Origin: Schmidtea nova
Lineage: Eukaryota
Length of the DNA: 64,000 nt
Direction: 5' to 3'
Assembly (NCBI GenBank): GCA_044892505.1
Contig: CM097883.1
Span: 227,726,001-227,790,000 of the forward strand
The notes below the pieces were generated by a model. That model did not search any database, was not told where the DNA came from, and saw only the letters and a list, made by a program, of their open reading frames with translations. This document shows positions 13,330 through 60,178 of the stretch, in pieces. A program made the position numbers and the translations under genes. Each line of letters begins with the position of its first letter. Position 1 is the stretch's first letter.

Positions 13330-14557
13330 TTTATAACTAAATTTATTTGTTTCTTTATTCATTTACGTCAAAGTTAGGTAACAATATATTTATTATTTGA
13401 AATATGTTCAAGTATTGAGCTTTTGCACATAAAATCCATAACAGAATTGGTTCTGCTACTAGGGCTCTGCTCGCAATGTTCTGCTACGAAATGTTTTGTC
13501 ACTATGATAAATACATGAAAAGTTATTATACTATTGAGATAATCACACAAATTATTCTTACATTATAGTACAAATATATCAAAAATATATGAAATATACT
13601 TGAAATATTATCACAGTATCATTACATACATGAAATATCATTATACTATTGTGGAAAATATCATCATACTGCAATTACATAGAAAATCACCAAAGTTACA
13701 CACAAAATATGAAAAGTACATAGAATTTCGTTTCATACAAAAACATAATATATATGAAATATTATCAAAAATACATACAAAATACATAGAAATTTATCAC
13801 ACACGTACAAAATATCACCATACTATAGTGAATAAATATACATACAAAATATCAGAAATACAAACATACATAAAATATCATCTTACTATAGTTTGATAAC
13901 ATAGACATACATGAAATAACCACAAAATACAGAAACTTTCAAAGATATATAGATTCATCACACATACAAAATATCACATATAAGAAATATCATTACAGAT
14001 TATCACATGCATGAAATATTATTATTATAGTGCAAATTACATAGAAAGTAGCAAAGATACATGAAATATCATCACAAAATACACACAAAATTATAGGAAA
14101 TTTTCACACACTAGAAATACATACAATCATAATCATAAAAAGAATATTATCACGCCAGTACAAAATTATACACAGAATATTATCTCATTGAACAAAAGCT
14201 TATCATATATATTATTATACTTTTATGTAAACTACAAAAAGAAATACAAATATATACACAAAATATTATCACATTATAGTGCCTAAACATTAGAAATATT
14301 CACAAATTATATATAATATGATCATAAAATATCAAAGATTTACAAAGAAAATACACAAAAGATTATATTATTGTTTGATAACATAAAACTACATTGAATT
14401 ACATAGACAATGATTAAAATACATACAAGTATCATTACATACATGAAATATCATCATACTATAGTGCAATTACATATATATTCATCAAAAATATACAGAA
14501 ATTAATCAAATTCACAACAATATTCATTAAAGAAATATCTACATACTTGTGCAAACA

Positions 14558-15076
14558 ACAAAGAAAAATACAAACATATACACAAAATATTATCACATTA
14601 TAGTGTCTAAACATTAGAAATATTCACAAAATATATGAAATATGATCATAAAATATCAAAGATTCACAAAGAAAATACACAAAAGATTATCATATTATTG
14701 TTTGATAACATAAAACTACATTGAAATACATAGAAAATGATTAAAATACATACAAGTATCATTACATACATGAAATATCATTACACAAAATATTATAACA
14801 TGCATGAAATATCTACATACAAAATATCAAAAGTACATAGAAATAAATCCTATACACAAAGGATATCATTACATATATTAAATATTATCACAAAATACCT
14901 TTACATACATGAAATATCATCATACTTTGTTGCAAATACAGACTAAATATTATCATGCTATTTTGTAAATACACTTAATATTAAAAAGAAATATCATACA
15001 TACACAAAGGATATCATACACATGAAAATCTGTCATGTTAGTCAGTCAAATGCATGACTTATTATCATACTAGTGT

Positions 15077-15122
<46 letters not shown>

Positions 15123-17091
15123 CAAAAAATGTATCATACATACAAAGTATATCAATACAAAGTATCATTACATGCATGAAATATCATCATACTACAGTGC
15201 AATTACATATATAATAATCAAAAATATACAGAAATTAATCAAATTCACAACAATATTCATTAAAGAAATATCTACATACTTGTGCAATTACATAATAAAT
15301 ATACAAAACTATCAAAAATAGATGAAATATCATCACAAATATCAACACATATGAAATATTATCATACATACACAAAAGTAATAAAATCATACTTAGAAAA
15401 TCAATACATACAAAATATCAAAAGTTCATCACACATACAAAATATAATTACATATATCATCATACTATAATTTAACAGTAATAAATGTTTAACTAATGAG
15501 CTTTTGCACATAAAAACCATCACAAAAGATGTTCTGCTACCAATGTTTTGGTCGTAATGTTCTGCTACTAAATGTTCTGATACTGAATAAAATTGATATA
15601 AATGTAACAATGTATTATGAATGAAAATATATCTTACAAACATTACAGAAAATTCTACTTTAAAATGAGGTCGAATGTTTGAAGTGTCATCATACTATAA
15701 TGTAAATACATAAAAAATACTCACAAAGTAACATTAGATACATCAAATATTATCTTACTATAGTTTGATAACATAGAAAAAATATATAGAAATCATCAAA
15801 TTATACATACAAAATATTAAAAATAGATCATATTAAATGTCATTACAAAATACATATATATAATCATCAAAAATATACAGAAATTAATCAAATTCACAAC
15901 AATATTCATTAAAGAAATATCTACATACTAGTGTCATTACATAAAAAATATCAAAAATATATGAAATATCATCACAAATATCAATACATATATGAAATAT
16001 TATCATATATACAAAGGATATAATCACATACAAAACATCAAACGTTCATTACACATACAAAATATAATCACATATATCATAATACTATAATGTAACAGTA
16101 ATAAATGTTCAAATAATGAGCTTTTGCACATAAAAACCATCACAAAAGATGTTCTGCTACCAATGTTCTGATACTAAATGTTTTGCTACTGTATAAAATC
16201 AATGAAAATTATAGGAATAAAAATAAATCTTCCAAACATTACAGTAAATTCTACTTTAAAACAATGTTGAATGCATGAAATGTCATCATACTATAGTGCA
16301 AATACATGAAAATACTCACAAAGTGACATTAGATACTTTAAATATTATCTTACTATAGTTTGATTATAAATATATAAGTATGAAAACCCGTTTTGTTTTT
16401 TACAATAATGTTTAAATTCTTGATGTTTCTGTGATGTCTCATTGTAGTTAACCCGCGCGCGTATTTCCAATAATTATTTCACATCTTTATTGCAGATTAT
16501 CATTTTATTATATTAATTTCATGCTAGCAGTACATTGCGAACAGAACATTTAGTAGCAGAACCTTTTCTGTGATGGTTTTTATTTGCCAAAGCTTATTAC
16601 TCGAACATTTTTTGCAATTTATTCAGCATCATTTGTTCTAATATTTTCACCAATTAATATTTTCTCTAATGTTTTTTTTTAAATATCTATTAGTTTTCCT
16701 CATTTTTATGTAGGATTTACTCTAACAATTTATTGTCACTCGTATAATTTTCATTAAATTTATCCACTAGCAGAACATTTCGAACAGAACCTTTAGTAAC
16801 AGAACATCTTTTGTGATGGTTTTTATGTGCAAAAGCTCATTATTCACACAAATACTAAAATAACAATCATTAGCATATGAGCTTCGATCAATGTAACAGA
16901 TAAATTGTGAAAGCATATTACATTTACTGATACACTTTTAATGACAATTCTTATGTGAATATTTATTGTTTGATGAATTGCTATGTATGTTTGATGAATT
17001 TCAATGCATATTAGATATTTTGTGGTCATTTTCTTGTAATTACACTATAGAAGGATGATATTTAAGGTATTTAATAATACTTTGTGATGAC

Positions 17092-17161
<70 letters not shown>

Positions 17162-18554
17162 ATATGTATTTCTAATGTTTTTGTGATATTTTGTGATAAT
17201 ATTTTGTCTATGTTTGTATTTTTGATAATTTGTACATGAATTTCTATATATTTCGATCTATTTTTAATATTTTGTGTATATTTTGATGATTTCTATATAT
17301 TTTCTCAATGCTATCAAACTATAGTAAGATAATATTTAAAGTATCTAATGTCACTTTGTGAGTATTTTCATGTATTTGCACTATAGTATGATGACATTTC
17401 ATGCATTCAACATTGTTTTAAAGTAGAATTTTCTGTAATGTTTGGAAGATTTATTTTTATTCCTATAATTTTCATTGATTTTATACAGTAGCAAAACATT
17501 TAGTATCAGAACATTGGTAGCAGAACATCTTTTGTGATGGTTTTTATGTGCAAAAGCTCATTATTTGAACATTTATTACTGTTACATTATAGTATGATGA
17601 TATATGTGATTATATTTTGTATGTGTAATGAACGTTTGATGTTTTGTATGTGATTATATCCTTTGTATATATGATAATATTTCATATATGTATTGATATT
17701 TGTGATGATACTTCATATATTTTTGATATTTTTTATGTAATGACACTAGTATGTAGATATTTCTTTAATGAATATTGTTGTGAATTTGATTAATCTCTGT
17801 ATATTTTTGATGATTATATATATGTATTTTGTAATGATATTTAATATGATCTATTTTTAATATTTTGTATGTATAATTTGATGATTTCTATATATTTTTT
17901 CTATGTTATCAAACTATAGTAAGATAATATTTGATGTATCTAATGTTACTTTGTGAGTATGTTTTATGTATTTACATTATAGCATGATGACACATCAAAC
18001 ATTCGACCTCATTTTAAAGTAGAATTTACTGTAATGTTTGTAAGATATATTTTCATTCATAATACATTGTTACATTTTCATCAATTTTATTCAGTATCAG
18101 AACATTTAGTAGCAGAACATTACGACCAAAACATTGGTAGCAGAACATCTTTTGTGATGGTTTTTATGTGCAAAAGCTCATTAGTTAAACATTTATTACT
18201 GTTAAATTATAGTATGATGATATATGTAATTATATTTTGTATGTGTGATGAACTTTTGATATTTTGTATGTATTGATTTTCTAAGTATGATTTTATTTCT
18301 TTTGTGTATGTATGATAATATTTCATATGTGTTGATATTTGTGATGATATTTCATCTATTTGTGATAGTTTTGTATATTTATTATGTAATTGCACAAGTA
18401 TGTAGATATTTCTTTAATGAATATTGTTGTGAATTTGATTAATTTCTGTATATTTTTGATTATTATATATGTAATTGCACTGTAGTATGATGATATTTCA
18501 TGCATGTAATGATACTTTGTATTGATATACTTTGTATGTATGATACATTTTTTG

Positions 18555-18598
<44 letters not shown>

Positions 18599-19197
18599 AC
18601 ACTAGTATGATAATAAGTCATGCATTTGACTGACTAACATGACAGATTTTCATGTGTATGATATCCTTTGTGTATGTATGATATTTCTTTTTAATATTAA
18701 GTGTATTTACAAAATAGCATGATAATATTTAGTCTGTATTTGCAACAAAGTATGATGATATTTCATGTATGTAAAGGTATTTTGTGATAATATTTAATAT
18801 ATGTAATGATATCCTTTGTGTATAGGATTTATTTCTATGTACTTTTGATATTTTGTATGTAGATATTTCATGCATGTTATAATATTTTGTGTAATGATAT
18901 TTCATGTATGTAATGATACTTGTATGTATTTTAATCATTTTCTATGTATTTCAATGTAGTTTTATGTTATCAAACAATAATATGATAATCTTTTGTGTAT
19001 TTTCTTTGTGAATCTTTGATATTTTATGATCATATTTCATATATTTTGTGAATATTTCTAATGTTTAGACACTATAATGTGATAATATTTTGTGTATATG
19101 TTTGTATTTTTCTTTGTAGTTTACATAAAAGTATAATAATATTTCATATATATGATAAGCTTTTGTTCAATGAGATAATATTCTGTGTATAATTTTT
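14558..19197. repeat. Large foldback inverted repeat: arms ~14558-16364 and 17313-~19197, ~950-bp spacer, centre ~16838
   Basis: ORF-track peptides recur nearly identically on opposite strands (14737+/18938-, 15282+/18395-, 15643-/18034+). Inner boundary checked base by base at 16364/17313. Outer right end matches 14162. Related modular sequence extends left to ~13400. Confidence 0.92.
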
Positions 19198-20165
19198 TCG
19201 GTATTATTTTCATTGTCCTCTTTGGGAATTCTCGACATTGCATCGGCATTTGCGTTGGCTTTGCCTGCTCGATATTTAATCTCAAAGTCGTATTCTTGAA
19301 GTGCAATTGACCAGCGGATCAATTTACTAGGCGAATCTCAATGCTTCATTAGCCATTGAAGAGGGTTATGATCAGTGTACACAAAAAATTTTCTCCCCAA
19401 CAAATATTGTCTAAATGTAGCAATCCCATAAACTAACGCTAAAGTCTCTTTTTCAATCGTTGAATAATTTTTTTCATGTGGTCTCAAGGATCTGCTTGCA
19501 TACGCTATCACGTCATCTTTTTCACCGTCCATCTTTTGACCTAGTACAGCACCCAGTGCAACATTACTTGCATCGGTCATCAGTAGGAAAGATTTTGTAA
19601 AATCTGGACATCGCAAAATTGGTGCTGTTATTTATTTTTGATTCAATGCTTCAAAAGCTTCTTGTTGAGTTTTACTCCACACGAATTTATTATTTTTCTT
19701 TAACAATGAGTTTAATGGCTGAGCGATGTGCTAAAAATTCTTTATGAATTTTCTATAATAACTTGCTTATCCAAAAAATTGTCTTGCCTGATCAGGGTTC
19801 AGTGGAATTGGATACGCTTCAACTTTCTGAATATTTTCAGGATTAATTTTTAGGCCTCTTCGTGATATTATATGACCAACATATACCACTTCCGATTTTC
19901 CCCATTCACATTTCGGCGGTTTTATTTTTAATTTTGCACTTTTCAATCATTCGAATACTGTCTCGACATCATTAAGATGCTCGTCAAAGTCATTTGAAAA
20001 TATAATTATGTCATCAATATATACTAAAGCATGTCTAATGCCTCTCAATACGAAATTCATGCCTCTCTGGAATGTTGCCGGGGCTCCAGTTAAACCGAAC
20101 GGCAAGACATTAAATTCGTATAGGCCTTTACCATCCGAAAACGCTATATTATCTGCCGGTTTCAT
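19197..20165 (-). pseudogene. pol: Gypsy reverse transcriptase (C-terminal half) and RNase H
   Basis: [83 protein letters not shown]. Several stops. Confidence 0.95.
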
Positions 20166-20169
20166 TTCT

Positions 20170-22278
20170 CTTAATTGGTCCATCGGATAAGCTGGTAGAG
20201 GTTGAATAAATGAATTTGGTATACATAATCTAGTAAAGGTATCTTGATTACTGTTGTTAAAAAATGGTTTTTTTATGAATTGACATTTTTTTAATGTTTT
20301 AATTCCTTCGGTTTGTTTTCGCTCGTCTGAATATAGTGGTGTCTCTTCATCGGTATTATCATTGTCATTTTTGTCATCATTAGAAGCAGTGGTAATATTA
20401 CTATAGCTTCCCTTTTTCTTTTTCAACATTCGCGTTTTTAAAGTTTCCATTTCTTTATATTGGTGATGTGTAATGAAAATTCTTGCGAGCAATGGTACAC
20501 ATCTAATAACTAGTTTCCAGGACCAACCCGTGATAACATATAATCTATGTGTTGATAACACCTGCGATATTATTACTTTAATCACGATCCCGATCACATA
20601 AATTCCGATTAACCCAGCACAGGCTTGTCCAATAAACAAGAATTTTCCCCATATCTTTTTCATCGTATTGTATGTTGCTCTTTTATAATGATCAGCTGTC
20701 AATAGATAATCATAATTCACTTTCCCAGTTCCACTCGGGAGGATAGTGACTATCATCTCCATAATTACTCTTTCCTTTTTTGATGGAAATAATAAGTTTC
20801 TCCGAGCTTCTTCAATATCATCACTGGAATACAACCCACTTTGAGTCATACTATCTAAGGATGTAAAATTAATCAAATATTCCAATTTTGTCAACTCCAA
20901 CTTTTCTGGAACTTTGACTCCTCTATGATCCGGTAATGAAATCTACGATTCAGGTGTCAAGAGATATAATGGAGCAAGTAGTCTATTACATTGTAATACT
21001 TTGGGCTTCACTTCCTCAACCAATAAAATCCGTGTTACTGGTTCCATGAATCGTAGTTTTCCTTTAAAATTTACTGGCAATTCGTTTGTGCATTGGTCAT
21101 ATTTCATCAATTTAATGGGTACTGCTTTGCATTTATAGTTATACAATGCTTCACCATAATTTCTAGCGAATACTCCATTCTCCGATATTAACATTGGAGC
21201 AACTAAATTTGGATTAGTAATTGCCATCGCCATTCTATTTCGTAAAATTTCTTTATTTAATTTGCAGTCATTCAGTATGATTTCTCTGTACACGCTTTCG
21301 ACCGTATCCTGACCAAAATGGAATAAATAGTCAATTTTATTATTAAAATAGTTTGTTAATTTGATTTCTTCTGAGTAAAACTTGGTTTGAGCTTCTTCAA
21401 CAGTTTTTTTTTATACATATATTCCTTTATAATTTGTCTCGTAAACAGTTTGTCCACATTTGGTATTTGCACCATTTCTTAAAAATCTCATCCCATCATT
21501 TGGAAATATTGCCATTAATACCGTTGGAGTATTTTTCATTCGTATTGGAGTAACTCTAATTGTCGTATTAATCATCGAATATAAGACTACTAAATTTTAT
21601 AAGACTGTGCTTTCTGGTCTCTCTTGAATTTGCTCTCCCGTTATTTCTTTAAACGGTATTCACTTCAAATGTGCCAAATTACACTTTTTCGTATCTACAT
21701 CGTATACTAAAATATATTCACCTGTTTTACAACTGGTTTCTCACATGTTGCAAAATGGATGCGTTTGAAGTTTTCCTGTATCATCATCGAACGATCCATC
21801 AAATTGTCTCAACTCTGTTTCATACTTCTCTATCACAACGACTTTATCAATAACATTTGTATCCACTTTATACGTTTCACCTTCACACTCACCATTTGAT
21901 TTGATTGATCCTTTGACTGTAATTGTTTCGCGAATTTTATGATTTAATTTTGCTTTCAGATTAATTTCCTAATCTACTTTTAATTCTCCTGTTTGAAAAG
22001 CTGCCAAACAGTTTTCGGGAGTTATTTCGATTACTCTTGGAATTGAGTACATTTTGATTAGCGAAGAATGACTCCATTTTCCGCAATAAAATATAAATGT
22101 TGTCCTTTTTGCCGTACATTCTCTCACTTACACGCCTAAATCCTGACTCTTGGTACACATGATAAGTTACTTCACTTGACCATTTTAGATTCCTTGGATA
22201 CGCATCTATACATTCAGCTACACCTACTAATGAATACACTTTTCCCATTTCAGTTTGAGAAAAATCATATGCTACCAT
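20170..22278 (-). pseudogene. env: Envelope glycoprotein, chuvirus-G-like
   Basis: MVAYDxS...VYSLVGVAEC; ECTAKRTTFIFYCGKWSHSS; LRNRMAMAITNP; GEALYNYKCKAVP...CTNELPV...FMEPVTRIL; QSGLYS; TM FLFIGQACAGLIGIYVIGIVIKVII (~20556-20642). I recognise this cysteine/motif spacing as chuvirus-like glycoprotein. Stops and frameshifts present. Confidence 0.75.
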
Positions 22279-22395
22279 TGATGTTGTGGTGTTGATAATT
22301 CCTAATATTATAAAAATAAACATTGTCAACCATGGATATATTATTTTTCCCTTTTTTGATTCATACACCCTTTTTGAATTCTTCGGTTTTAGTAT

Positions 22396-22758
22396 CAAGT
22401 TTTCCCATCCACCATTACATTTAATCCAACTAGTCACATACGTATTTGTCACTTTTGAGGCTTTTTCAATCCACTTTTCTGATTTGTCCGACTCCAAACA
22501 ACCATATGTGCCAATTTTTAGAACAACATAAGCTAGAACTGTTAGCACTACGTCTCTGTTCAAACCATCTTTAATTAACTCCTGAATTACTGTTTCATCA
22601 CAAAATATACTTTCTTTGACGTTACTTTGAAGTATGATTTGGAGTCGCCTTTTCATCTGTCTCGCAAGTTGTTGTATGAATTCATCTTCGCATATATTCT
22701 CTTCGTCTAGTGCATATAGTTCCATTACCAACCCCTTTAAAATCAGTTCTGTTTCCTC
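22396..22758 (-). pseudogene. Bcl-2-family-like domain embedded in the retroelement reading frame
   Basis: BH1-like ELIKDGLNRDVVLTVLAY (cf. ELFRDGVNWGRIVAFF) and BH2-like VTSWIKCNGGWENL (cf. WIQENGGWDTF) at the right spacing, followed by a basic linker and hydrophobic helix PWLTMFIFIILGII. Confidence 0.75.
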
Positions 22759-23162
22759 CGAATCATTTGAGTCTATTTTATCGAACTCGGCTACGTCGTC
22801 TTTTCCAGTTATCTCAAAATCTTTCCGCTTACGGCTGTTACGTTCATCATTACTTTCCGTTTCTAAAAAATTCGATTCGTGTTTTATCCCTTCAATAGAT
22901 ACCGGCTCGTCATTTGTATCTTTAGATTCCTGATGTACTGCATCATTTTCATCAGTCATTATTGTCATCAGTCATACTTCCTATTTGCAATTCATTCAAA
23001 ACTTTATCTTTTGACTCGTAGTTTTCTAACTTAGCTTCGTTTAATTCATTAGATATTTCAGTTTTAATTTCTTTGGACTTTATATCTTCATCTGTATCCC
23101 TTGCAATTCTAGGCCAATGCGAGACGATAGCCTCATTATCAACCATATCATCCGTTTGCTTC

Positions 23163-23377
23163 GTGGCATATACATTATTTATATAATTTGGATTACATCC
23201 ATAGTTAACTAAATATTCGTCATCGTCTAGCTCGATTCCTCTAAATGTTAATATAATATTCCCATCATTACCCATTGTCTCTGCAGACTTTCGTCGTAAT
23301 TTCGATACCATTGCGCTCCAATGCTCTTGAAAGTACTCAACTTTTCCTCCTATGTTTAGAGATATTACTAATGACTT
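23163..23377 (-). pseudogene. Ubiquitin-like domain 2
   Basis: LVISLNIGGKVEYFQEHWSAMVSKLRRKSAETMGNDGNIILTFRGIELDDDEYLVNYGC aligns by eye to ubiquitin ([20 protein letters not shown]). In frame with ORF 24694-23426 across one TAA. Confidence 0.6.
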
Positions 23378-23639
23378 CAGATTACTATCCGATTCTCTGT
23401 AATCATGTCCTAGTTTTCGTATAGTTTATTTTAATCTCGCTTGATAACTCGTCTTCTTATGAATATAAGGTAAAATGCATTCAAACAATTTCTCTTTAGA
23501 CTTTTGACTCATTTGTGAATTCAACATAGATTCAAGACATTTATTAATCTCATCTTTATCTCCAATATACAACATATCTCGCAGATCTTGCAGAGTTTCC
23601 TCCCAACTTTTAAATTCTGAATTTGAAATATTAACAGTA

Positions 23640-23860
23640 TTTATAATTCTAACCTCATTTTTGAATCCCGGGATTAAACCAAAATCGACCAAGTATTTAT
23701 CATCCCTCAGTTGACCCATTTGCGGTTGTATCAGTTCTACACTGCTTCCATTATATTTAGTCATAATAAGTCCTTTCAAGTCTTTTATTTGTCCATAAGC
23801 ATTAATAGAAAATTGAGTTCTCAAATCATTGATGTCTGTGGCTTCGACAAAAATATCATC
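23640..23860 (-). pseudogene. Ubiquitin-like domain 1
   Basis: IFVEATDINDLRTQFSINAYGQIKDLKGLIMTKYNG...LIQPQMGQLRDDKYLVDFGL aligns by eye to ubiquitin (IFVK...TIENVKAKI...[15 protein letters not shown]). Confidence 0.62.
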
Positions 23861-24339
23861 TAAATTGTTTTTGAATCGTAAAGCTCTCCCAAATATTCTC
23901 ATTAGTTTGGCAATTCTGTCATCTCGATGTGCGTTGTAGGACTTAGCACATAGGTTCAATATACTTTTCAATTTTCTTGGACTGAGTGACATTCGGCTTA
24001 GCTCTGTTATCCACTCTTTCAATCTTGGATTGTTTCTTTCCATCCTTGCGAGCCATCCTTCCACTTTCTTTATCAATAACGTAGCCTTTTCATTCAACAA
24101 CTCATCTTTTACTTTATTAGCAAAATTTCCTTTCACTTCTGATACATTTTCATATACCATAAAGAAGTCTGCTTCATCATCCGATTCGAATTTGGACATC
24201 AACTTGTTTAATTTCTGTCTCATTTCCCGAAATTTATTTTCCATTTTTTCTTTGAACTCGTCTTTTTGAGCATAAGCTACATTGGCATTGGACGATTCGT
24301 CTTGAAATCTAATTGATTTCTTTAGGATAGGTCTTCCAA

Positions 24340-25415
24340 ACCTTTCCGAATTTCTTGGGCATGATCGAGCCATGTGGCCATAACTTTTGCATGAATGGCA
24401 TTGAATGTGTCCATTGGCATTCACTTTTTCTCGTTGCGATGAAGGAGATGTGGAGGGTGATCGAGTTCTTGAAAAGCAATTTCTGCTAATATGGCCCATT
24501 TTTCCATATCGATAGCATTTAATGTCAACATTGTTTGGATTGTTTTCCATAAAATTTCTTTTGGGACTAATATTTCTGCCATTTTTGAACCAACATTGAT
24601 TTGAATAATGTCCGACCTTCTTGCAATACTCGCATGCAATATTATTCGATCTCTCGTTGGTCTGATTACTAAAGGTTGCTGCTATTAATTTCAAATTTAT
24701 TACCTAATCTTGGAGAGCTGTTTGGTTGGATTGGTTTCTTTGATTCCCATTGATTCTTTACTGGAGTTATTGATCTTTCTCGTTTATCAACATTGATGGC
24801 AAATACGTCAGACTTTTGGGTGCTTTCTAAATTCAATTCCATCTTCATTGCTTTTCTCACCAATTCGTCAAAATTCGAAAAATCCACGTAACACAATGCC
24901 TTTTTGATTTCAGGATGGGCTCCCGTTATAAACTGATCTTGAAGCAGTTCTTTGACTTGTTTCATCATTTCAACTTGCTCAGGCTTTATTTCGAATACTT
25001 TATCTGCTAAAATAGTTAAATGGTAGGCGAACTCACTTACCGATTCATTTGGATTCTGCACTTGATTGTAAAACTTTTGTTGCATTATTCTTTTGCCATC
25101 TCCTCCCACCAATTTCATCGTCATTGCATCTTTTAATTTGGCCCAATCATTTCCAACTGTCTTTTTATCAACTTGCTGACAAGCTTCTCTCGCAGCTCCC
25201 TTTAGATATAATGGAAATCTTTGTGCCATAATGGCTTCTGACCACCCATATGCTGAAGCGTACATATAATAATCACCCATAAAATCAGCAAATTCTACTG
25301 GGTCTCCTCCATATTGATTCACCGGCAACTTTTGGCAACTTGCGAAATCAATAATCTCGGCATTCTCTTTAGCCATATTGATTATTTTTCGGCTTCTCAA
25401 GTTATACTCGCTCAA
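24340..25415 (-). pseudogene. gag: Gag (capsid-like plus three CCHC zinc knuckles), one frameshift at ~24680
   Basis: YGGDPVEFADF...FPLYLKGAAREA...QNPNESVSEFAYHL...DQFITG; CEYCKKVGHYSNQC, CYRYGKMGHISRNC, CHSCKSYGHMARSC. Confidence 0.92.
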
Positions 25416-25543
25416 CTCTAAATATTAAGTATCGATAATTAATAATTTATACCTTTTTAACGACTTTCCCACAATTTTGCTTTCAAAATTCGCTTTTTAT
25501 TACCTCACTATTCCTTTTTAGCGTTTTCTTTCTCCGACTTTGG

Positions 25544-25561
25544 ATCACGTCGGGCTCACCA
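25544..25561 (-). promoter_or_regulatory. Primer-binding site, tRNA-Trp type
   Basis: TGGTGAGCCCGACGTGAT matches the well-known tRNA-Trp PBS TGGTGACCCCGACGTGAT at 17/18 positions. Lies 6 nt inside the LTR end (cccaata). Confidence 0.85.
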
Positions 25562-25567
25562 AAAATA

Positions 25568-26600
25568 TATTGGGTTTAATTAAAACAGATATTATCGTCG
25601 GTGCCTGACTCCTCGTGTTCAAACAAATCAGTAAGTAATAACACTCCCAATGTATATTTGTTTAGATCGACACAATCTTTTTACAATTCACAGCAATAAT
25701 AATACAACGTCCTAATTATTCGATCGAGCTCCGCCGTGCGATGTGGTGACCTCGTGCGCTCTATAGCAATAATCACTTTGCATATCAGAATCCTCTGGAT
25801 TGATCTCTTTTTCTTTAATAATTTCGCCTTCCTTTGAATCAGCTCCTTTTTAATTTCTTTACTCTTTTTCTCTCGTATTTTCCTATTTCTTCTGACTCTG
25901 CTACCTTTAACCTAATCTCGTTTTCTTCTCCCTAACGATTGTTTTCAATTTAGAGTTTCCTTATATAATAAGATAATCATTTTGATTAATTAGTAATTTG
26001 GCCAAATCGCCTCTGTCTGACAATGCTTTGACAATCATTTTTCTTGAATATCGTCTGAGAGCTTATAGTGATTGATTGCCCTCTTCTGTTACCCTTTCGT
26101 ATTAACCAATTTGTTTACTCCTATTACTCATAATGACAGGATAATGGCTTTTCCGAAATCCGCTTTGTTTACTCTCCTTGTTTGCCGAGCTCGGGTTTTC
26201 TTCATCTCTCGGGTTCTCCATTAGCTCGGGTTTCCCATTCGCTCGGGTTTTCCATTATCCAATTAATTAATTAATTAATGGTTTTTTTTGTTTTTGTGCA
26301 TATGTATGCTTTCCGACCCTTTCTGAACATTTTCTGACCGATTCCTAATCATTATGTTCTTCACCAATAGCTAATCTATACCTGTCCTGTTTTCTACATT
26401 CAATTTCGATAAATTAACCATTTATTCATTTTTCTTAATTTGCACATTTGCATTTCGAATTTCACTGTACCATATCCTAACTCTGTTTCCCTTATAATTT
26501 CCTTGGTTATTCGTTCTGTGCTTGATCACACTTCTCCATATACCTGTTTCATTCAATTTTCATCTAGAATTTCATTTAAAATTTTATTTATAATTTTATT
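25568..26600 (-). mobile_element. 5' LTR of the env-bearing element (outer end truncated or uncertain)
   Basis: Ends cccaata next to the PBS. Contains 4x ggaaaacccgag-type repeats shared with LTR pieces at 8.2, 33.6 and 53.3-53.5 kb. Confidence 0.6.
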
Positions 26601-26850
26601 TAAAATAATTTTGATTTAAAGACCTTAACACATTAATAGCATTTGTTTTCAATGAAGGCAATATTTTCTGATCTTTCATGATAACGTCTTTGGCAGTTTT
26701 CATTCCAAAACTAACTAATCGCTTAAGTATTGGAAGTGCAAATTTACCAATAGTTTTCAGCCAACCTGATCCATACTGTTTACCTACAAAATACGGTAAT
26801 TCGCCACCAGCTTGGCTATTACTGTACAAAGAAACTATATCAGGATTATG
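26596..26850 (-). pseudogene. Polinton/adintovirus small core-like protein, 3'-truncated
   Basis: QAGGELPYFVGKQYGSGWLKTIGKFALPILK matches the conserved QxGG-xLPxF-G...GxG...FRxAxPxLK pattern of Maverick/adintovirus virion proteins. Confidence 0.7.
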
Positions 26851-27860
26851 TATCGCTTTTTCGAAAATGTAGAGTCAAATGAGTTTTTGAATTTTTTGGA
26901 AAGTTTATTAAATTACCTCTATCGTCTCTGATATTAATTTCTATATTGTTTATACAAGACGTTAAAACAGTTCAATACATTGGATTTTCTACTTGTATTT
27001 GAACAACTTCATCCTGTTCATGTTTTTTAATCCATACCGATTTTACCATGGGAACTAATGAATCGCCAACAATTATAGGATTGACTATTATACTGTAAAT
27101 GAACATTTGTTGATGAAGTTTAATTATTTTCGGTTTATTTATTCCTATATTTAAATATCCATTTTGAGCGTATGTTGCTTTCGCTAGTCCTAACGTTTGT
27201 ACGAGGTTTCTGTCAAAAGTAATTTCACTAATATCAGGATTCAAACTGAATATGAAGTAAATATCATCTATCAATTCCAATGATTTAAAGATACTTGCAC
27301 AATTTTGAATCATATATGATTGCATTTCATCCAATTTCGATATGTATAAGTTATCTTTAAATGTATATACAAAATCAGTATCAGCCTTGAACTCCATCTT
27401 GAATCTAATTTTTCAAATCTTTCGCCAACTTTGTTATATTTAGGTAACGGTATCTTGTAGGACTTTCAGAACTCTGTTTCGGTAATCATAATCTTTTTGC
27501 CATTGCCAAAGTATCAAATGTTATTGTGAAGGGATAATGATCACAGGTGAAATAAATAGAATTCTTATCGCTAGACATTTGAGCAATATCATCGGCAGGA
27601 TTAGATATATCAACTTCATTTTGTAGATTGTCAATAACCAAATTATTTTATTTGGAGTGCAAAGTTTTCATTTTGTATCGAATTTCAGCTTTACTATAAA
27701 ATGGAAATGGATTATAGACAAATGTAAAGTCTAATAGAGCGACTTCCCAAATACCGTCTAAATAAATCGGATTTTGTAGATTGACCATGAATTTACTGGC
27801 AGTATTTTCTGGATCTATATCGGGACAACTGTTGCTAGGTAAAACAATATAAAAATTCAT
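26846..27860 (-). pseudogene. Minor capsid protein (penton, single jelly-roll) of Polinton/adintovirus type
   Basis: N-term MNFYIVLPSNSCPDIDPENTASKFMVNLQNPIYLDGIWEVAL; C-term MFIYSIIVNPIIVGDSLVPMV...IEINIRDDRGNLINF...LTLHFRK. Premature stops and one frameshift. Confidence 0.85.
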
Positions 27861-28888
27861 TTTACTAGGTTTTTTGATGATATCCATGATGGTTCTTTAT
27901 ATCCATGCCACTTGACATAGTATTGTTTATCTTTATCAATATTTTTTGAATTCTAAATATTGTCGGCAGGGGAATAACTTGCAATTCTTGTTCAAAGAAT
28001 TTTCCACTGACTATATTGTTATCAGAGTCAGAAATAGTATACATGACAGGATTCTGGACTGTGTTGACATTCGATATTTTAAAAACCTCATCACTCCAAT
28101 TACTATCAAAGTTTTTAATGAATGGCGATTCACTAATTTTACTAATTTGAACATGATCACCAATTTTATATTTTGGTTTCTTTATTTTTATATCACTCAA
28201 GATATTTTCAGTATCAACTACTTCAGCAGGTTTCTTGCCATTTATACCTCGATGAGCAGAATGATTATAACTATGAATCATTTGTGGTAAAACATTAATC
28301 CATGTTTTATTCCTTTGATGCAGAAAATACTTTTTGAGACGATCCCTCAAGGTACGATTAAATCTTTCAACATGGGCTGCTTTGAATTGAGAGAATACCG
28401 AGTAATGATTGATTCCCTTTATGGCTTCCTTGACTTTACTGTTGTAAAATTATTTGCCTAGATAAATAAATATCATTTTATAAAAAATTTATTAGCTTAC
28501 CCAAATCAGTTTGTAAATTATTTGGACGTCCACCTTTGAACATTGTTTTGATTGCGATTTCCATATCATTGGCAGATTTAGATTTTACTGGAACAGCCCG
28601 AGCAAATCGACTGTAAACATCAATACATGTTAAAATATATTTGTATCCCTTGTTAATTTTTGAATAGGGAATCATTTCCATCAAATCTATTTGCCACAAA
28701 TCATTAATTCTATATGTTTTGTATGCTCGTGTCGGAAACCTTTTCAGCATAGGTTTGTTTAGACTGTATGCAAGTTGCCCCGAAAACCAACTTTGAGTTT
28801 GTCTTTTTGAATTCGATACATATTTCCTTAGCTTTTTGACTCCACCAAAACCTGCTTCGTGCTTTGGGTTCGTCCATATCTTCTCCAT
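27857..28888 (-). pseudogene. Polinton c-integrase (rve, DDE) with C-terminal chromodomain, interrupted by a 43-nt intron
   Basis: WQIDL...YKYILTCIDVYSR, LQTDLG|K*FYN, HVERFNRTL, FDSNWSDEVFKI, YYVKWHGY...SWI. Removing 28500-28458 restores the frame. Confidence 0.92.
28458..28500 (-). other. Spliceosomal GT-AG intron (43 nt) in the integrase
   Basis: GTAAGC...tatttatttatcTAG. Splicing joins GAT TTG G to GC AAA (T/G)AA TTT TAC AAC, giving the conserved TDxGxEFxN motif. Confidence 0.8.
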
Positions 28889-28943
28889 TACAGCAAGAAG
28901 ATTTAAAGTTTAAATTAAGATTAGGCAATGATTGACCCATTGT

Positions 28944-29290
28944 TTATGACCTTTTTCCTAATAAACCAGCACCTCTCAATAATGATAATGCTAATGGTAA
29001 CAATGCTGCAATAAACCCTCCTTGTTGTTTATATATTATTTTACGCATTAGTTTTTTATTTTTTGTTTTTACAAGTGAGAAAAAATGCTTCTTGTGTTTG
29101 TTCAAAACTCTTCTATTGGATGCACTTATTGATTTTACCTCTAACAACTTTATTTAAAATCGTTAGTAAATCATCAATAACGTAATTAGGAAACGATTGT
29201 AAAATACTCATTCTTCTAATACTTGGGGCTTTAAGTAATGCATTGAAAAATGGGAAACTACGATGATGTATTTGTTTTGCATTTGGTTTG
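28944..29290 (-). pseudogene. Conserved small basic Polinton/adintovirus protein with C-terminal QQGG-F amphipathic peptide, frameshifted
   Basis: FFNALLKAPSIRRMSIL...VIDDLLTILNKVVRGKI joined by frameshift to RRVLNKHKK...KQQGGFIAALLPLALSLL. Confidence 0.7.
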
Positions 29291-29489
29291 TAAGTATTTT
29301 GAATACGATTATCCTTTATGAATATTATCAATAAATAATTGTTTAGATGGTGTAAAACTAGTTTTCGAAACTGATTTCTTTGTTTTCTTTGGAACTTTTT
29401 TTTCCCCGGTTTCTTCATTTTTCTAGCCTTTATCAATCGCTCAAACTTTACTCGAGATTTCAATAACATTATTGAAAATATACAATTAA

Positions 29490-30113
29490 TCAACTTTGTT
29501 TATAAACCATGGCTCCTTCCTTGTTGAAAATATCTGTTCTAACTCTTAAATCATCACTACATTGTTGTGTGAAATCAAGAAAAAGATATCCATGAGGAGC
29601 TTTTGTAGCATCTTGGAATGCATCAATCAAGAAATTTCGATTAGAAGGGTGTGCTTGTCTTGCAAGAAAGTCAATAACTTTTGCTTCTCTAGGATTTTTA
29701 AAAACAACAAGATATTGAACATTCAAATTCCGGGTTCGATGATTGTCGCCCTGATGAAATAAATTCTGAGTAATAAAAATAACTGTAACACTTTTGAGTC
29801 TAGCGAGTTTTGTAAATAAATTGTTAAAATCCTTTTCTTTATTTGCTTCTTGATACAAATCATCAATAATAATCACATCCCCTTCTCTTAATCTAGATGA
29901 CCAATTTTTATCGAAACCTTTTATGATTGTCATTTTTATTTTACAAAATTGGTCTTGAGTCATTCCATGTTCCTCATCTGCACCCCTATGCCAATAAATT
30001 TTATTAAACTTTGATTTGAATAATTTTGATTGTAATAATTTACAAACAAATAAAGTTTTTCCACTCCCGCTCGGTCCAACAATTCGAAACACTGCATCAT
30101 TTCCTAATTCCAT
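29490..30113 (-). CDS. A32/FtsK-like DNA packaging ATPase (Polinton/adintovirus)
   Basis: Intact 207-aa ORF. Walker A GPSGSGKT, Walker B VIIIDD, IFITQNLF, RTRNLNVQYLVVFKNPR, HGYLFLDF. Confidence 0.93.
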   Translation of the reverse strand: MELGNDAVFRIVGPSGSGKTLFVCKLLQSKLFKSKFNKIYWHRGADEEHGMTQDQFCKIKMTIIKGFDKNWSSRLREGDVIIIDDLYQEANKEKDFNNLFTKLARLKSVTVIFITQNLFHQGDNHRTRNLNVQYLVVFKNPREAKVIDFLARQAHPSNRNFLIDAFQDATKAPHGYLFLDFTQQCSDDLRVRTDIFNKEGAMVYKQS

Positions 30114-30204
30114 ATTTCTTATTTTATTAATTAATTATTATTGTTTATATTTGTTTTAAATAATAATTGTTTTTATTATTGTCATATTTAAAATATTTTC
30201 ATTA

Positions 30205-30666
30205 ATGATTAGCAACATAAATTATAAGGGTAAGACTGATGTATCGCACATGAATTTTCCTAAGGGGAAACCACAACAAATTGTAAATAGAAGTGGTAAA
30301 TATCCGATAATATATTTTAAGACCGGGAGATTTAGAATTATGGGATGCAAGGAATTTATTAGTGATGAAAGGGTTTACGACTTAACAATACAATTGATTA
30401 CTGTAATTGCAGATTGAGGATTTATTTGTGATTTAAATGATTTGGCTAAATTAATAGAATGTGTTTACGAGCCAGAATTATTTCCAGCTTTGAGATATGC
30501 AAAATATAACCCCATGTGTGTTAATATATTTACAAGTGGTAAAGTAGTTATATTAGGTTTAAAAACTAGGGACTATTTAAATATAGTTGATAATATAATT
30601 ATGGATATAAAATCAATTATTGAAGATAAAGCCTTTGTTGATTTCATATTATCGTGTGACTCATGA
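30205..30666 (+). pseudogene. TATA-binding-protein-like gene (two-repeat core, ~153 codons) with one in-frame TGA at 30415-30417
   Basis: Repeat 2 YEPELFPALRY...VNIFTSGKVVILGLK versus TBP YEPELFPGLIYR...LLIFVSGKVVLTGAK. Repeat 1 IIYFKTGRFRIMGCK versus LIFSSGKMVCTGAK. The two track ORFs are in one frame. Confidence 0.8.
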
Positions 30667-34374: not shown

Positions 34375-36830
34375 CTGATTATAGATTTCTAAACCAAATC
34401 ACAGAACCAGGCAGCTACCCATTACCAATTATAAAAGACATAATTATCCGAATAAAGGGCGCAAAATACTTTTCAAAAATAGATCTGCAAAAAGCATATC
34501 ATCAGATCCCAATAAGGAAAGAAGACATAAAAAAGACTGCAATAACAACACCGGTCGGAATGTTTGAATACAACCGAATGCCTTTCGGTCTACGAAACGC
34601 AGCAGCAACTTTCCAGCGATATATGGATCAAACAACGAAAAGCAACAAAAACACAATCGCCTATCTGGACGACATATTAATAACTAGCCCAGACAAAGGA
34701 ACACATTTAAACGACATTAAAAACGTGTTTGAGACATTAAAAAATGCAAAACTAAAAATCAACGCACAAAAATGCGAATTCATAAAAACCGAAATAAACT
34801 TCCTTGGACATACCCTAAACGAAAAAGGAACACAACCAATCGGAAACAAAATAAGCAACATTAAAAATTACAAATTGCCAATTACCACTGGGGAATTGAA
34901 AAGATTCCTGGGAATGGTAAACTTTTACCACTCTTATATTCCAAACTGTAGCAAATTATTGGCACCACTAAATGACATAATAAAATCAAAACGAAATGTC
35001 AAAATAAATTGGACTCAACAGACAACCGAAGCTAAAGAAAGCCTATCACAAGCAACATTACTTGGATATCCAGATCCAGAATTAGAATATCAACTAACAA
35101 CAGACTGTTCAGGTTTCGCAATGGGCGCAAATATTTATCAGGACAATCAATTTGGAAAACAACCAATAGGATTTTTCTCGAAAAAACTAAAGTCACATCA
35201 AATCAGAAATTCGACTTTTGACAGAGAACTCCTAGCAATACATGATGCAATTTAACATTTTCAACACTTATTAGAGGGGCAAACTTTTAAAATATATACT
35301 GACCACAAGCCCCTAATAAATGCAATAGCGATGAAGAATCCATCGCCAAGACAAATTCGACAATTAAATTTTATTTCCCAATTCAATTGCACTATAAATT
35401 ATGCAGCTGGAAAATCTAACGTCGCAGCAGATGCCCTATCTAGAATTGAAAGCGACATAAACTCCTTAGAATTCGAGGAAATAATAGAAATGGAACAAAT
35501 TAAACCTAAACAATCCGAGACAATAAGAAAACGTCCTACAAAACATAGCCTGAAACTTCAGGAATACAACGGAGTATGGTACGACATATCAAATGAAACC
35601 AACAAACGAATATTACTCCCAGAAGACTTCCGAAAAGGATGCATTGAAAAGATACATACAATAAATCACCCGGGAAACAAAACAACATACGAACTAATAC
35701 ATAACAATTATGTATGGCTCAACATGAGAACCGATATAAAGAATTTTGTAAAAAGTTGTCCAAATTGCCAACTAAACAAAACTTCAAAAAAATTCAAAAC
35801 TCAAAAGGTGAATTTCCCAAGCAGTCAAGCTTTTGAGATAATTCACACTGACATTGTAGGACCACTGCCACCAAACGAGGACAACAAATACTTACTGACA
35901 ATTATAGATAGAAAGACTAATTGGTTTGAGGTAATACCAATAAAGGAAATCACTGCTAAAAATATTTTCGAAATGATAGAACTAAACTGGATAGCTCGCT
36001 ACGGCCAACCAAAAACAATTATAACTGATCAAGGCAAACAATTCGAATCGGAAATGTTCAAGGTTCTTTGCAACAAATACAACATTAAAAGAAACCGAAC
36101 AACAGCCTACAACCCACAATCAAACAGAAATATTGAACGGTTTCATCGAACGCTGAAAGAAAGCATTAGAACCAAAGCTAATGATCATAGTTGGTTAAAT
36201 CAATTACCCACAATACTAATTGGTTTAAGAAATTGTCCTAATTCAACTGATAACGAAAGTCCTGCACACAAAGTATTCGGTAAATCAACAAATTTACCAT
36301 CACTGAAAACTAACAGTCAAAACAGAAAAGAAACCGAAATAAACAAATCAATTGAAAACAAACCAAAGAGAATCTTAAAAAAGAGATAAAACTCCGAAAT
36401 GGATAGAAAAGTAGTTTTAACGACAGACTACATCTTGATTAAAAAGCCCTTCACAAAAGGTTTCGAACCAAAATACGAAGGCCCATTCAAACTGTTCGAA
36501 ATTAACAAAAACGTAGCAACAATAATAAAAGACAACGTCAAAACAAGAATTAATCTAAGACAAATAAAACCTTACCACAACAATCAAAACATATGAAACA
36601 ACCCCACAAAAGACAAAGCACCGACACAAACAAAAACACAACCAAACCACAAACACATCACATTCAACCACAAAAACACAATAAAACTTTTCGACAAGGA
36701 CTCAATAATCACACCCCTATACATAAATCGATACAGCGAATGCTTTAAATAAAAACAGAAACACACACAAGCAAAACACATGCACAACATAGCTAATTGT
36801 ACAGTTTTTTTTATTTTTTTGTAAATATGT
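34375..36830 (+). mobile_element. pol: 5'-truncated Gypsy pol: RT - RNase H - integrase
   Basis: IDLQKAYHQIP, MPFGLRNAAATFQR, YLDDILI, TTDCSG, TDHKPL, HPG...CPNCQ (HHCC), HTDIVGP, ITDQGKQFES, ERFHRTLK, KYEGPF. Scattered stops. Confidence 0.95.
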
Positions 36831-57883: not shown

Positions 57884-59000
57884 TTAAGCGGAGCAACCAT
57901 CTTCTCCAATCGTTTCATATGAATTTTCGCTTTTTTCTTTTTGTATTATAGCAGGTTTTACTCGTTGCATATTTACTGTAACTTCTTTTAAGTCTTTGCT
58001 TATTGTTACAGTGTTCCCTTGTATTGACACGACTTTGTACGGCCCACTGTATCTTGGTTTCAAGTGATGCACTTCCGGTGCTTCTAGCCATACTAGTTTC
58101 GTCGATTTCCAATTTCTTGGAACATTGCTTTTATCTGCTTTAGGATATCTTAGATTTGGATTGGTATTCAGTGTATTGTAATTTCGTCGAGCCTCTTCTA
58201 GTGCCTCCCACTCTATTTCGGCAGAAGCTGAGAATATATCTCCTGGTAGCATGGTGCCGCTACCAAATAACATTTGTGCTGGTGATATGTTGGTTGGTGC
58301 GTGTGAAGAGTTTCTCCAACCGAGTAGTACCGTTGGTAAGGCTTTTGTCCATCTGCACATCTGTGCCATGCATCTTAATGACGTCTTCAAAGAACGATGA
58401 AATATTTCAATCAATCCATTTGATTGCGGATGATACGCAGTTGTATGTATGTGTTTTACTCCAAAGATTTTAACTAAATTATTAAAAATATTACTCTCAA
58501 ATTGGGTCCTTTGGTCCGTCATAATATGATTTCGAATTCCATACCTTGCAAACCACGTGTTTGTTATTACTTTTACGATAGTTTCTGCAAATATTGATGT
58601 AACTGGAACTGCTTCCGGCCAACGAGAATATCTATTCATCATAGTTACTAGATAAGTGAATCCTTCCGATGGTGGAAGTAGTCTCACAATATCCACATGC
58701 AGAACTTCAAATCTATTTCCTGTGGGAAAACTCTGTATTTGGGGCTTTAATCGCTTGTAAATTTTATTTGATTGACACTTGACGCAACTGCTGCACCCCT
58801 CTTAAATATTTTTCTTCATTCCAGGCCAACATGCTCTGAGTTTTGTCAGCTGATAAGTTACATTGACCCCAGGATGATGATGTTGATGTACTGTTTGGAA
58901 TACTTCCTTCCTTAGTTCTTTAAATAAAATTGGCCTAGCCGTCCCAGATATTGACATATCGTAAAATATTCCATCTTCTTCTATGACCTCTTTAAACCTT
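57884..59000 (-). pseudogene. Gypsy integrase
   Basis: HHPG...CVKCQ, HVDIV, MTDQRTQFES, EIFHRSLK, PRYSGPY. Confidence 0.9.
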
Positions 59001-59083
59001 TCTATATCTGCCTTCTCAGGAGGTTTTGCTCTGATTCGGTCTTTGTTGAGATCTCCTTGGAATTGAATGGCATTTATCGAAGC

Positions 59084-60178
59084 TCATGATAGACAATCTG
59101 CTACTACGTTATCTTTACCTGCGGTATATTTAATGTTCATATTAAATTCAGATAACAATGAAATTTGACGTTGTTGCCGAGGAGAGGGTTTCTTCATCTC
59201 TAACGCATGAATTAAAGGTTTATGGTCTGTAAATATTGTAAATGATTTTCCTTCTAGCATGTAGGAAAAGTGTTTTACGGCTTCTACTATTGCAAAAAGC
59301 TCTCGATCGAATGCTGAATATCGAACCTGGGTAGGTGATAATTTCTTTAAGAAGAATTCTATTGGTCGTATTTCTCCGTGTTTTGTTTGATGTAACACGG
59401 CTCCAATTGCTAGGTCAGACGCATCCGTTGTCAAAGATATTTCTGCTTTGCTATCCGGTAAAACCAGTGTTTGAATCTGTGCTAATTTTGATTTCACTTT
59501 TTCAAACGCTGTTTTCGCTTCCTCAGAATAGATGATGGTTTCCGATTTCTTTCCGTTTACAAGAGACGATAACGGTGACAATATTTCTGAAGCTTTTTCA
59601 ATAAATTTATGATAAAAGTTTACCATTCCGAGAAATGTTCTTAATTGCGTTACTGTTTTTGGTATCTGCATATTTTGGATTGTTGCTAAACGTCCTGGAA
59701 TAGGTGCCACGCCATTTTCCGATATCATGTGTCCGAGAAATGTAATTTCCCTTTTAAAAAATTGACACTTTTCCATGTTAATTTGAATATTGTTAACATG
59801 CAATTTCTCTAAAACGTTCGTTATATGACTCTCATGTTCTGAATAATTCTGAGAGGCTATTATCACATCATCCACGTAAGCAAAAAATCTATGTAATATG
59901 TCTGATATTAAAGGCATCGGATAAGCATCTGATTTTGTGAGTCTGTTTAATGCCCGGTAGTCTCCACATGACCGAATAGATCCGTCTTTCTTTGTTACAA
60001 TGTGCAACGGCAAAGACCACCCTGAGTCCGATCGTCTGAGTACTCCATCTCTTTCTAACTGTCGGAACTCTTTTTCTGCCGCTTTTCTTCTTTCAGAATT
60101 CAGCTCTCTGACTTTATAAGTAACCGGTGCTGTCGCTATGGTTGGAATGTGATGCTCTGTTTTCCTCATATCGTTCAT
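59084..60178 (-). pseudogene. pol: RT-RNase H with in-frame internal RT deletion
   Basis: GDYRALN...YPMPLISDILHRF|FAYVDDVII: the DLxxxFxQ and MPFG motifs are missing. TTDASD and TDHKPL are present. Confidence 0.9.

Follow-up and report, generated by a model that had tools for sequence, protein, structure and literature searches.

A decayed env-before-pol Ty3/gypsy element of Schmidtea nova with a private deletion that joins Env to reverse transcriptase

Introduction

In 2019, the planarian Burro elements were described as carrying an in-frame env gene that sits between gag and pol (PMC6431247). Burro1 to Burro4 and GYPSM1 are giant planarian gypsy elements of more than 30 kb, and the account of them in that report gives a single polyprotein of 4,873 aa that comprises a Gag with three CCHC knuckles, Ubi2/SUMO-like and BCL-2 domains, a mononegavirus-like Env, and protease (PR), reverse transcriptase (RT), RNase H (RH) and integrase (IN), with a dUTPase-like domain between PR and RT and a cargo of MATH, BIR and ankyrin domains (PMC6431247). 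The IAP cargo of Burro1 was reported to protect stem cells (PMC13465017, citing Lee et al. 2026). Elements with the order GAG-ENV-POL and a gB-type Env were reported from nematodes, bryozoans and flatworms, six of them from Schmidtea mediterranea, and according to the main text they do not form one clade, the flatworm group being assigned there to RT clade E and IN clade Y (PMC13524379).

The locus described here lies in a window of 64,000 nucleotides of Schmidtea nova (assembly GCA_044892505.1, contig CM097883.1, positions 227,726,001 to 227,790,000), and all positions below are those of the window. A preliminary description, made from the letters of the window, had noticed that env lies upstream of pol and runs into the middle of RT, and had set this against gag-pol-env as the established order of retroviruses and errantiviruses. 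That order is indeed known, but as a rule for errantiviruses it is incomplete, env between gag and pol having been published (PMC6431247, PMC13524379).

Results

Layout of the element

Positions 19192-26630 of the minus strand hold a decayed Ty3/gypsy LTR element with the order LTR, tRNA-Trp primer site, gag, two ubiquitin-like (Ubl) domains, a Bcl-2-like domain, a class III env, and RT from mid-domain with RNase H; all of its features are on the minus strand. The 5' LTR (25568-26630) is about 1.06 kb long, matches both ends of full-length relatives, starts with TG and ends with TA where the relatives have the closing CA. No second LTR of the element was found within the window. The primer-binding site (25544-25561) is complementary to the 3' end of tRNA-Trp and is the same in relatives; its complement was found inside genes called tRNA-Trp(cca) by ARAGORN. 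Matches to the tRNA-Trp pattern number 2,039 genome-wide, of which 2,036 fall on one strand, and tandem tRNA-Trp genes with a 282-nt period lie on C3 near 128.02-128.07 Mb (L060-L062).

The capsid part of gag (24679-25421; PF03732, E 6e-8) is 79% identical to the frame of the family that we call A, and the frame changes near 24679. It is followed by a nucleocapsid with three CCHC knuckles and then a helical stretch (23860-24679; PF00098 in three stretches, E 2e-9). The first Ubl domain (23640-23860) was recognized by profile search and by Pfam ubiquitin in family B, and the second, weaker one (23165-23371) aligns with the first. The Bcl-2-like domain (22400-22794) is matched by Pfam Bcl-2 at E 0.0013, below the cut-off, and has PDB matches. 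From hydropathy and from its position in families A to C, the hydrophobic segment at 22279-22344 is predicted to be both the tail anchor of the Bcl-2-like domain and the internal signal peptide of Env. The Env ectodomain (20625-22278) is that of a class III (gB/mononegavirus-like) fusion protein, with PF24664 at E 9.5e-26 and 1.8e-26 on two pieces, and in this copy it carries one frame change and six stops. The Env membrane segment (20568-20624) and cytoplasmic tail, assigned by hydropathy, together occupy 20146-20624. Beyond the join at 20145-20146, RT from mid-domain and RNase H (19192-20145; PF00078, PF17917) contain five stops, and the YIDD motif of RT is at 20010-20021.

The element breaks off at 19192, where it meets an AT-rich inverted repeat; relatives continue beyond this point, and neither an integrase nor a 3' LTR of the element was found within the window. 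As the preliminary description had noted, protease and the RT N-terminus are absent from the element and there is no pol between gag and env. Comparison with family A reveals 12 in-frame stops and 3 frame changes in the window copy.

Surroundings of the element

The cut 3' end of the element is abutted by an AT-rich foldback (14547-19128) with arms of 1,286 and 581 nt that are 99% complementary. On the other side, the 5' LTR cuts into a series of ORFs (26633-30134, minus strand) that includes an rve integrase as well as an A32-type ATPase and resembles a decayed Maverick/Polinton element; beside these ORFs lies an intronless fragment of a TATA-binding-protein domain (30421-30663, plus strand; PF00352, E 3e-10). 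Other gypsy-type pol pieces, 28-35% identical to the family, were found at 2-715, 34377-36299 and 57926-60157.

Relatives and family architecture

We aligned 22 copies to the window. Both flanks of the join are present in ten; of the other 12, some have a single flank, some stop short of the join and some come from a farther family. The spacing between Env and RT is 1,245-1,264 nt in all ten, and exactly 1,248 nt in four near-intact copies. In a near-intact relative from family A the stretch that the window copy lacks is in frame with Env and codes for the end of the Env tail, an aspartic protease, a conserved spacer and the RT N-terminus; its single stop-free frame of 3,345 codons runs from gag to past integrase. 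More generally, Gag-Ubl-Ubl-Bcl2-Env-PR-RT-RH-IN is encoded in one stop-free frame of 3,232-3,401 aa (3,345 in family A, 3,232 in B, 3,393 in C and 3,401 in a fourth family), and the domains are arranged in B, C and D as they are in A. Of the pol order PR-RT-RH-IN, the window copy retains only RT-RH. By hand count, 30 of the 150 scored matches to the Bcl-2-like domain sit in stop-free frames of at least 3,200 aa, belonging to families A, B and C. The inspection of full-length relatives that had been proposed earlier thus places Ubl-Ubl-Bcl2 between Gag and Env and the protease behind Env; the single frame and the constant spacing bear out the first of two explanations offered at the time, namely an atypical gag-accessory-env-pol order with a deletion in this copy.

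Paired LTRs of 1.06-1.08 kb, 99.1-99.8% identical, were seen in three of four family-A copies, together with TG...CA ends, the tRNA primer site and a polypurine tract; these copies are set in AT microsatellites. The family-A element measures 14,494 nt from LTR to LTR. A public contig of 2,167 nt (run X1, the RNA origin of which is only a guess) runs gap-free from the Env anchor to RT, and run X7 gave seven diverged reads. In 13 distant public proteins, 38-42% identical in Env, Env and protease are always in one chain, and in nine of them RT is as well; the order was checked by Pfam in the four that were scanned and was the same in all four. The 128-aa spacer between PR and RT, which is conserved and present in nine of these 13 proteins, had no named match in Pfam or PDB profile searches, a dUTPase-like identity being sought. 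One entry, P0011, is a 2,627-aa Env-PR-RT-IN polyprotein labelled in its source as a protein of a Flavobacteriaceae MAG; animal DNA sorted into a bacterial bin is its probable origin.

In families B, C and D the polyprotein is followed, ahead of the 3' LTR, by a second ORF of 430-490 aa (L024:6285-7742, L026:6854-8263, L054:6187-7485, L057:325-1803), in which Pfam recognized an RNase_T (DEDD) exonuclease in two of the four scanned (E 1e-5 and 0.015). Family A has just a short remnant frame at this site.

The accessory and Env domains

Between the subfamily of the window and family A, dN/dS is 0.04-0.29 in the domains and 0.8 in a spacer, and these sequence comparisons show that the domains were under purifying selection in the family's past. 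A profile of both Ubl domains from three families had ubiquitin and ISG15 chains as its top matches, with a best single-stretch E of 5e-5. The first domain (dN/dS 0.29) is matched by Pfam ubiquitin at E 5e-4 in family B, below the Pfam cut-off, and the second (dN/dS 0.07) has no Pfam match of its own in any of the three families. For the Bcl-2-like domain (dN/dS 0.18), all 60 PDB matches listed were Bcl-2/Bcl-xL with the single sequence, and again all 60 listed with the profile, the best at E 7e-4. A fold predicted from the single sequence (pLDDT 42), for which Foldseek returned nothing at E 0.001, was uninformative. The Bcl-2 profile, run against 7,992 candidates, found no public proteins of greater length, which is weak evidence, and the same profile matched four of the 13 distant polyproteins. 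Env is matched by PF24664 at E 6e-88 in family A, and the ectodomain of the window copy has a dN/dS of 0.06. In cells where the element is expressed, the Bcl-2-like domain would act to restrain cell death.

The join between Env and RT

The minus-strand frame at 19950-20942 is stop-free from the Env tail into RT, with 331 codons between two stops, so the preliminary description was right that the tail continues into RT without a stop. In this 331-aa frame Pfam finds Monjiviricetes_fusion (PF24664) at residues 4-204 (E 1.8e-26) and RVT_1 (PF00078) at residues 268-330 (E 1.6e-12). The join had been put at about 20165 and is in fact at 20146/20145, where KPADNI is still Env tail and RT begins with AFSDGKG. 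What is missing, about 1,248 nt or 416 codons in comparison with other copies, is the end of the Env tail, the protease, the PR-RT spacer and the RT N-terminus.

A 32-mer across the junction has one match in the 1.25-Gb genome with up to two mismatches allowed. A genome search with the 1 kb that surrounds the join returned 41 matches, and the window's own copy alone is contiguous, all others splitting at query positions 545-561 or covering one side only; this search scored the best 40 of 1,769 candidates, so that another copy, if rare and with a join that has diverged, could escape it. The deletion is private to the window copy, and there is no sign of function in the join. We hold it very probable that the locus is a dead copy of an env-bearing Ty3/gypsy element of the Gag-Ubl-Ubl-Bcl2-Env-Pol family, with a private 1,248-nt deletion, and that the in-frame join arose by chance.

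An open frame of 331 codons across an in-frame join is what could speak for a selected Env-RT fusion, or for a non-autonomous subfamily that spread with the deletion. However, env and pol share a single frame in the relatives, so that any deletion of 3n bases joins them in frame, and a deletion inside a single frame does so by chance one time in three. The join has no other locus in the genome, six stops lie upstream of it in env and one lies 65 codons downstream, and what it would yield is an RT lacking its N-terminus in an element with no integrase and no 3' LTR. Selection on the fusion, or its spread, is accordingly most improbable.

A repeat collapsed at the join during assembly would be conceivable in a multi-copy family with flanks rich in simple and inverted repeats. 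However, an 80-nt public contig (run X4, record 11) extends over the join by 40 nt in both directions with zero differences, which makes an assembly slip unlikely, even with run X4 possibly coming from the same source as the assembly; and contigs of undeleted copies diverge from the window exactly at 20145/20146. We give an artefact hardly any weight.

The second explanation offered earlier, a rearranged or tandem chimera in which one gag-pol-env element would contribute its env end and a second, lying next to it, the pol, could appeal to the nested and rearranged copies that are common in the family (for example L031) and to the other gypsy-type pol pieces in the window, but it is refuted by the single stop-free frames that run from Gag through Env to integrase, by the lack of an LTR or any foreign DNA at the join, by env followed by pol in ten of ten copies with both flanks, and by identities to the window that co-vary between the env side and the RT side in these ten copies (Spearman 0.96, the copies being related and not independent), which leaves it a negligible chance. 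Nor does the RT fragment belong to another family, its side of the join being 86% identical to the family RT, versus 28-35% for the gypsy-type pol pieces elsewhere in the window.

The deletion probably arose after insertion, through end-joining repair; template switching during reverse transcription is the less likely route, at roughly half the weight. The check for microhomology that had been proposed earlier gave 0-2 nt of exact match at the join, which is not above chance. Looser likeness around the two ends, 5-9 of 14 nt, has a chance of 0.18 and 0.34 in the two nearest copies and is notable only in farther copies (chance 0.005-0.02).

A module behind integrase and a proposed topology of the polyprotein

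In the relatives, integrase is followed in the same frame by a signal-like segment, a beta-rich, sequon-rich domain of 200-330 aa, a membrane segment and a short tail (L016:4653-5795, L024:5232-6050, L026:5230-6438; also L054, L057, L039 and P0014). At least four of the families here retain this module, as do seven of the nine distant polyproteins that reach RT; the window copy has lost it. Tails end in E-S/T-x-V, which we take to be a PDZ-binding pattern, in families B, C and D and in two more; family A does not have this ending. The module matched no Pfam family above cut-off, nothing among PDB sequences better than E 0.013, and none of 3,536 candidates; among 1.84 billion representatives it had six unnamed matches. 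A model of low confidence (pLDDT 44) resembled fibronectin III with Z of 7-8.4, a level that the tool calls common, in a fold search that took in residues 96-191 of the module.

Hydrophobic segments follow the Bcl-2-like domain, the Env ectodomain and integrase, and another lies near the C-terminus. On this basis, the simplest interpretation is that intact members would produce a single polyprotein with four passes through the ER membrane. Gag-Ubl-Ubl-Bcl2 would stay cytosolic; the Bcl-2 tail anchor would double as the Env signal peptide and place Env in the lumen; the Env anchor would bring protease-RT-RNase H-integrase back to the cytosol; and past integrase a second signal would start the export of another type I membrane protein with an anchor of its own. 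The chain would be cut by signal peptidase and by the element's own protease. This topology is favoured because the post-integrase domain is richer in N-glycan sequons (1.8-2.3 per 100 aa) than Gag and Pol (0.4-0.6). It is also supported by the two hydrophobic segments behind integrase in seven of the nine distant proteins reaching RT, by P0014, a free-standing homologue of the module with a signal and anchor of its own, and by the E-S/T-x-V tails. Against it count the poor model of the post-integrase domain and the Env ectodomain, which has no excess of sequons (0.2-0.4 per 100 aa), and the topology fails if a second, weakly hydrophobic stretch after the Env anchor spans the membrane.

We see the arguments as evenly balanced for a four-pass, flavivirus-like polyprotein with two membrane proteins, namely Env, exported by way of the tail anchor on a captured Bcl-2 domain, and a predicted post-integrase type I glycoprotein with fibronectin III-like modules and a PDZ-type tail, possibly the receptor-binding partner of the gB-type fusogen.

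Discussion

An env gene ahead of pol is not confined to flatworms. Sacco and colleagues reportedly described, in 2022, non-canonical endogenous retroviruses of nematodes with env before pol; these belong to another phylum, and they are likened to the present family by description only.

Closer comparisons are found in planarians. Smed_errantivirus_1-6 share with the family the gag-env-pol order, an HSV/gB-type Env and a multi-copy state (1-215 copies in their case), and in Env, the part compared, 77 of the first 100 aligned residues of Smed_errantivirus_2 are identical to family A by eye (PMC13524379). The main text of that report mentions no Bcl or ubiquitin domain, polyprotein or single ORF for these elements and gives no LTR or primer tRNA, whereas the family here has 1.06-kb LTRs and a tRNA-Trp site (PMC13524379). 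With the Burro elements and GYPSM1, as described in PMC6431247, the family shares the single polyprotein with the order Gag-Ubl-BCL2-Env-PR-RT-RH-IN. The conserved 128-aa spacer lies where Burro has its dUTPase-like domain. The family differs from Burro in size (family A: 14.5 kb, polyprotein of 3,345 aa), in having two Ubl domains, and in cargo, no MATH, BIR or ankyrin domain being found in family A (Pfam, both frame pieces, E up to 1). Ankyrins do occur in two of the 13 distant relatives. The Burro section of PMC6431247 makes no mention of a post-integrase membrane module.

The order env before pol is therefore already published, and the join is an ordinary deletion in one copy. Judged by its sequences, the family is a further flatworm GAG-ENV-POL errantivirus, compact and Burro-like, with neither the size nor the cargo of Burro proper. 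From this likeness the host would be placed among the planarian flatworms.

In summary, the Env-RT join carries little weight, since it is a single deletion that affects a dead copy, and the gene order of the element is published. The family offers a small model of the Burro architecture, 14.5 kb as against more than 30 kb, with young copies and near-identical LTRs. It raises the questions of how protease, RT and integrase function downstream of a membrane anchor in the same chain, and whether host cells gain protection from the Bcl-2-like domain, as was reported for the IAP domain of Burro1 (PMC13465017). The predicted second membrane protein behind integrase, seen in the relatives and lost from the window copy, is the only lead that we did not find in print in the literature searched, and supplements or Repbase may already describe the module. 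If real, this second membrane protein would mean that these elements have a two-part entry apparatus.
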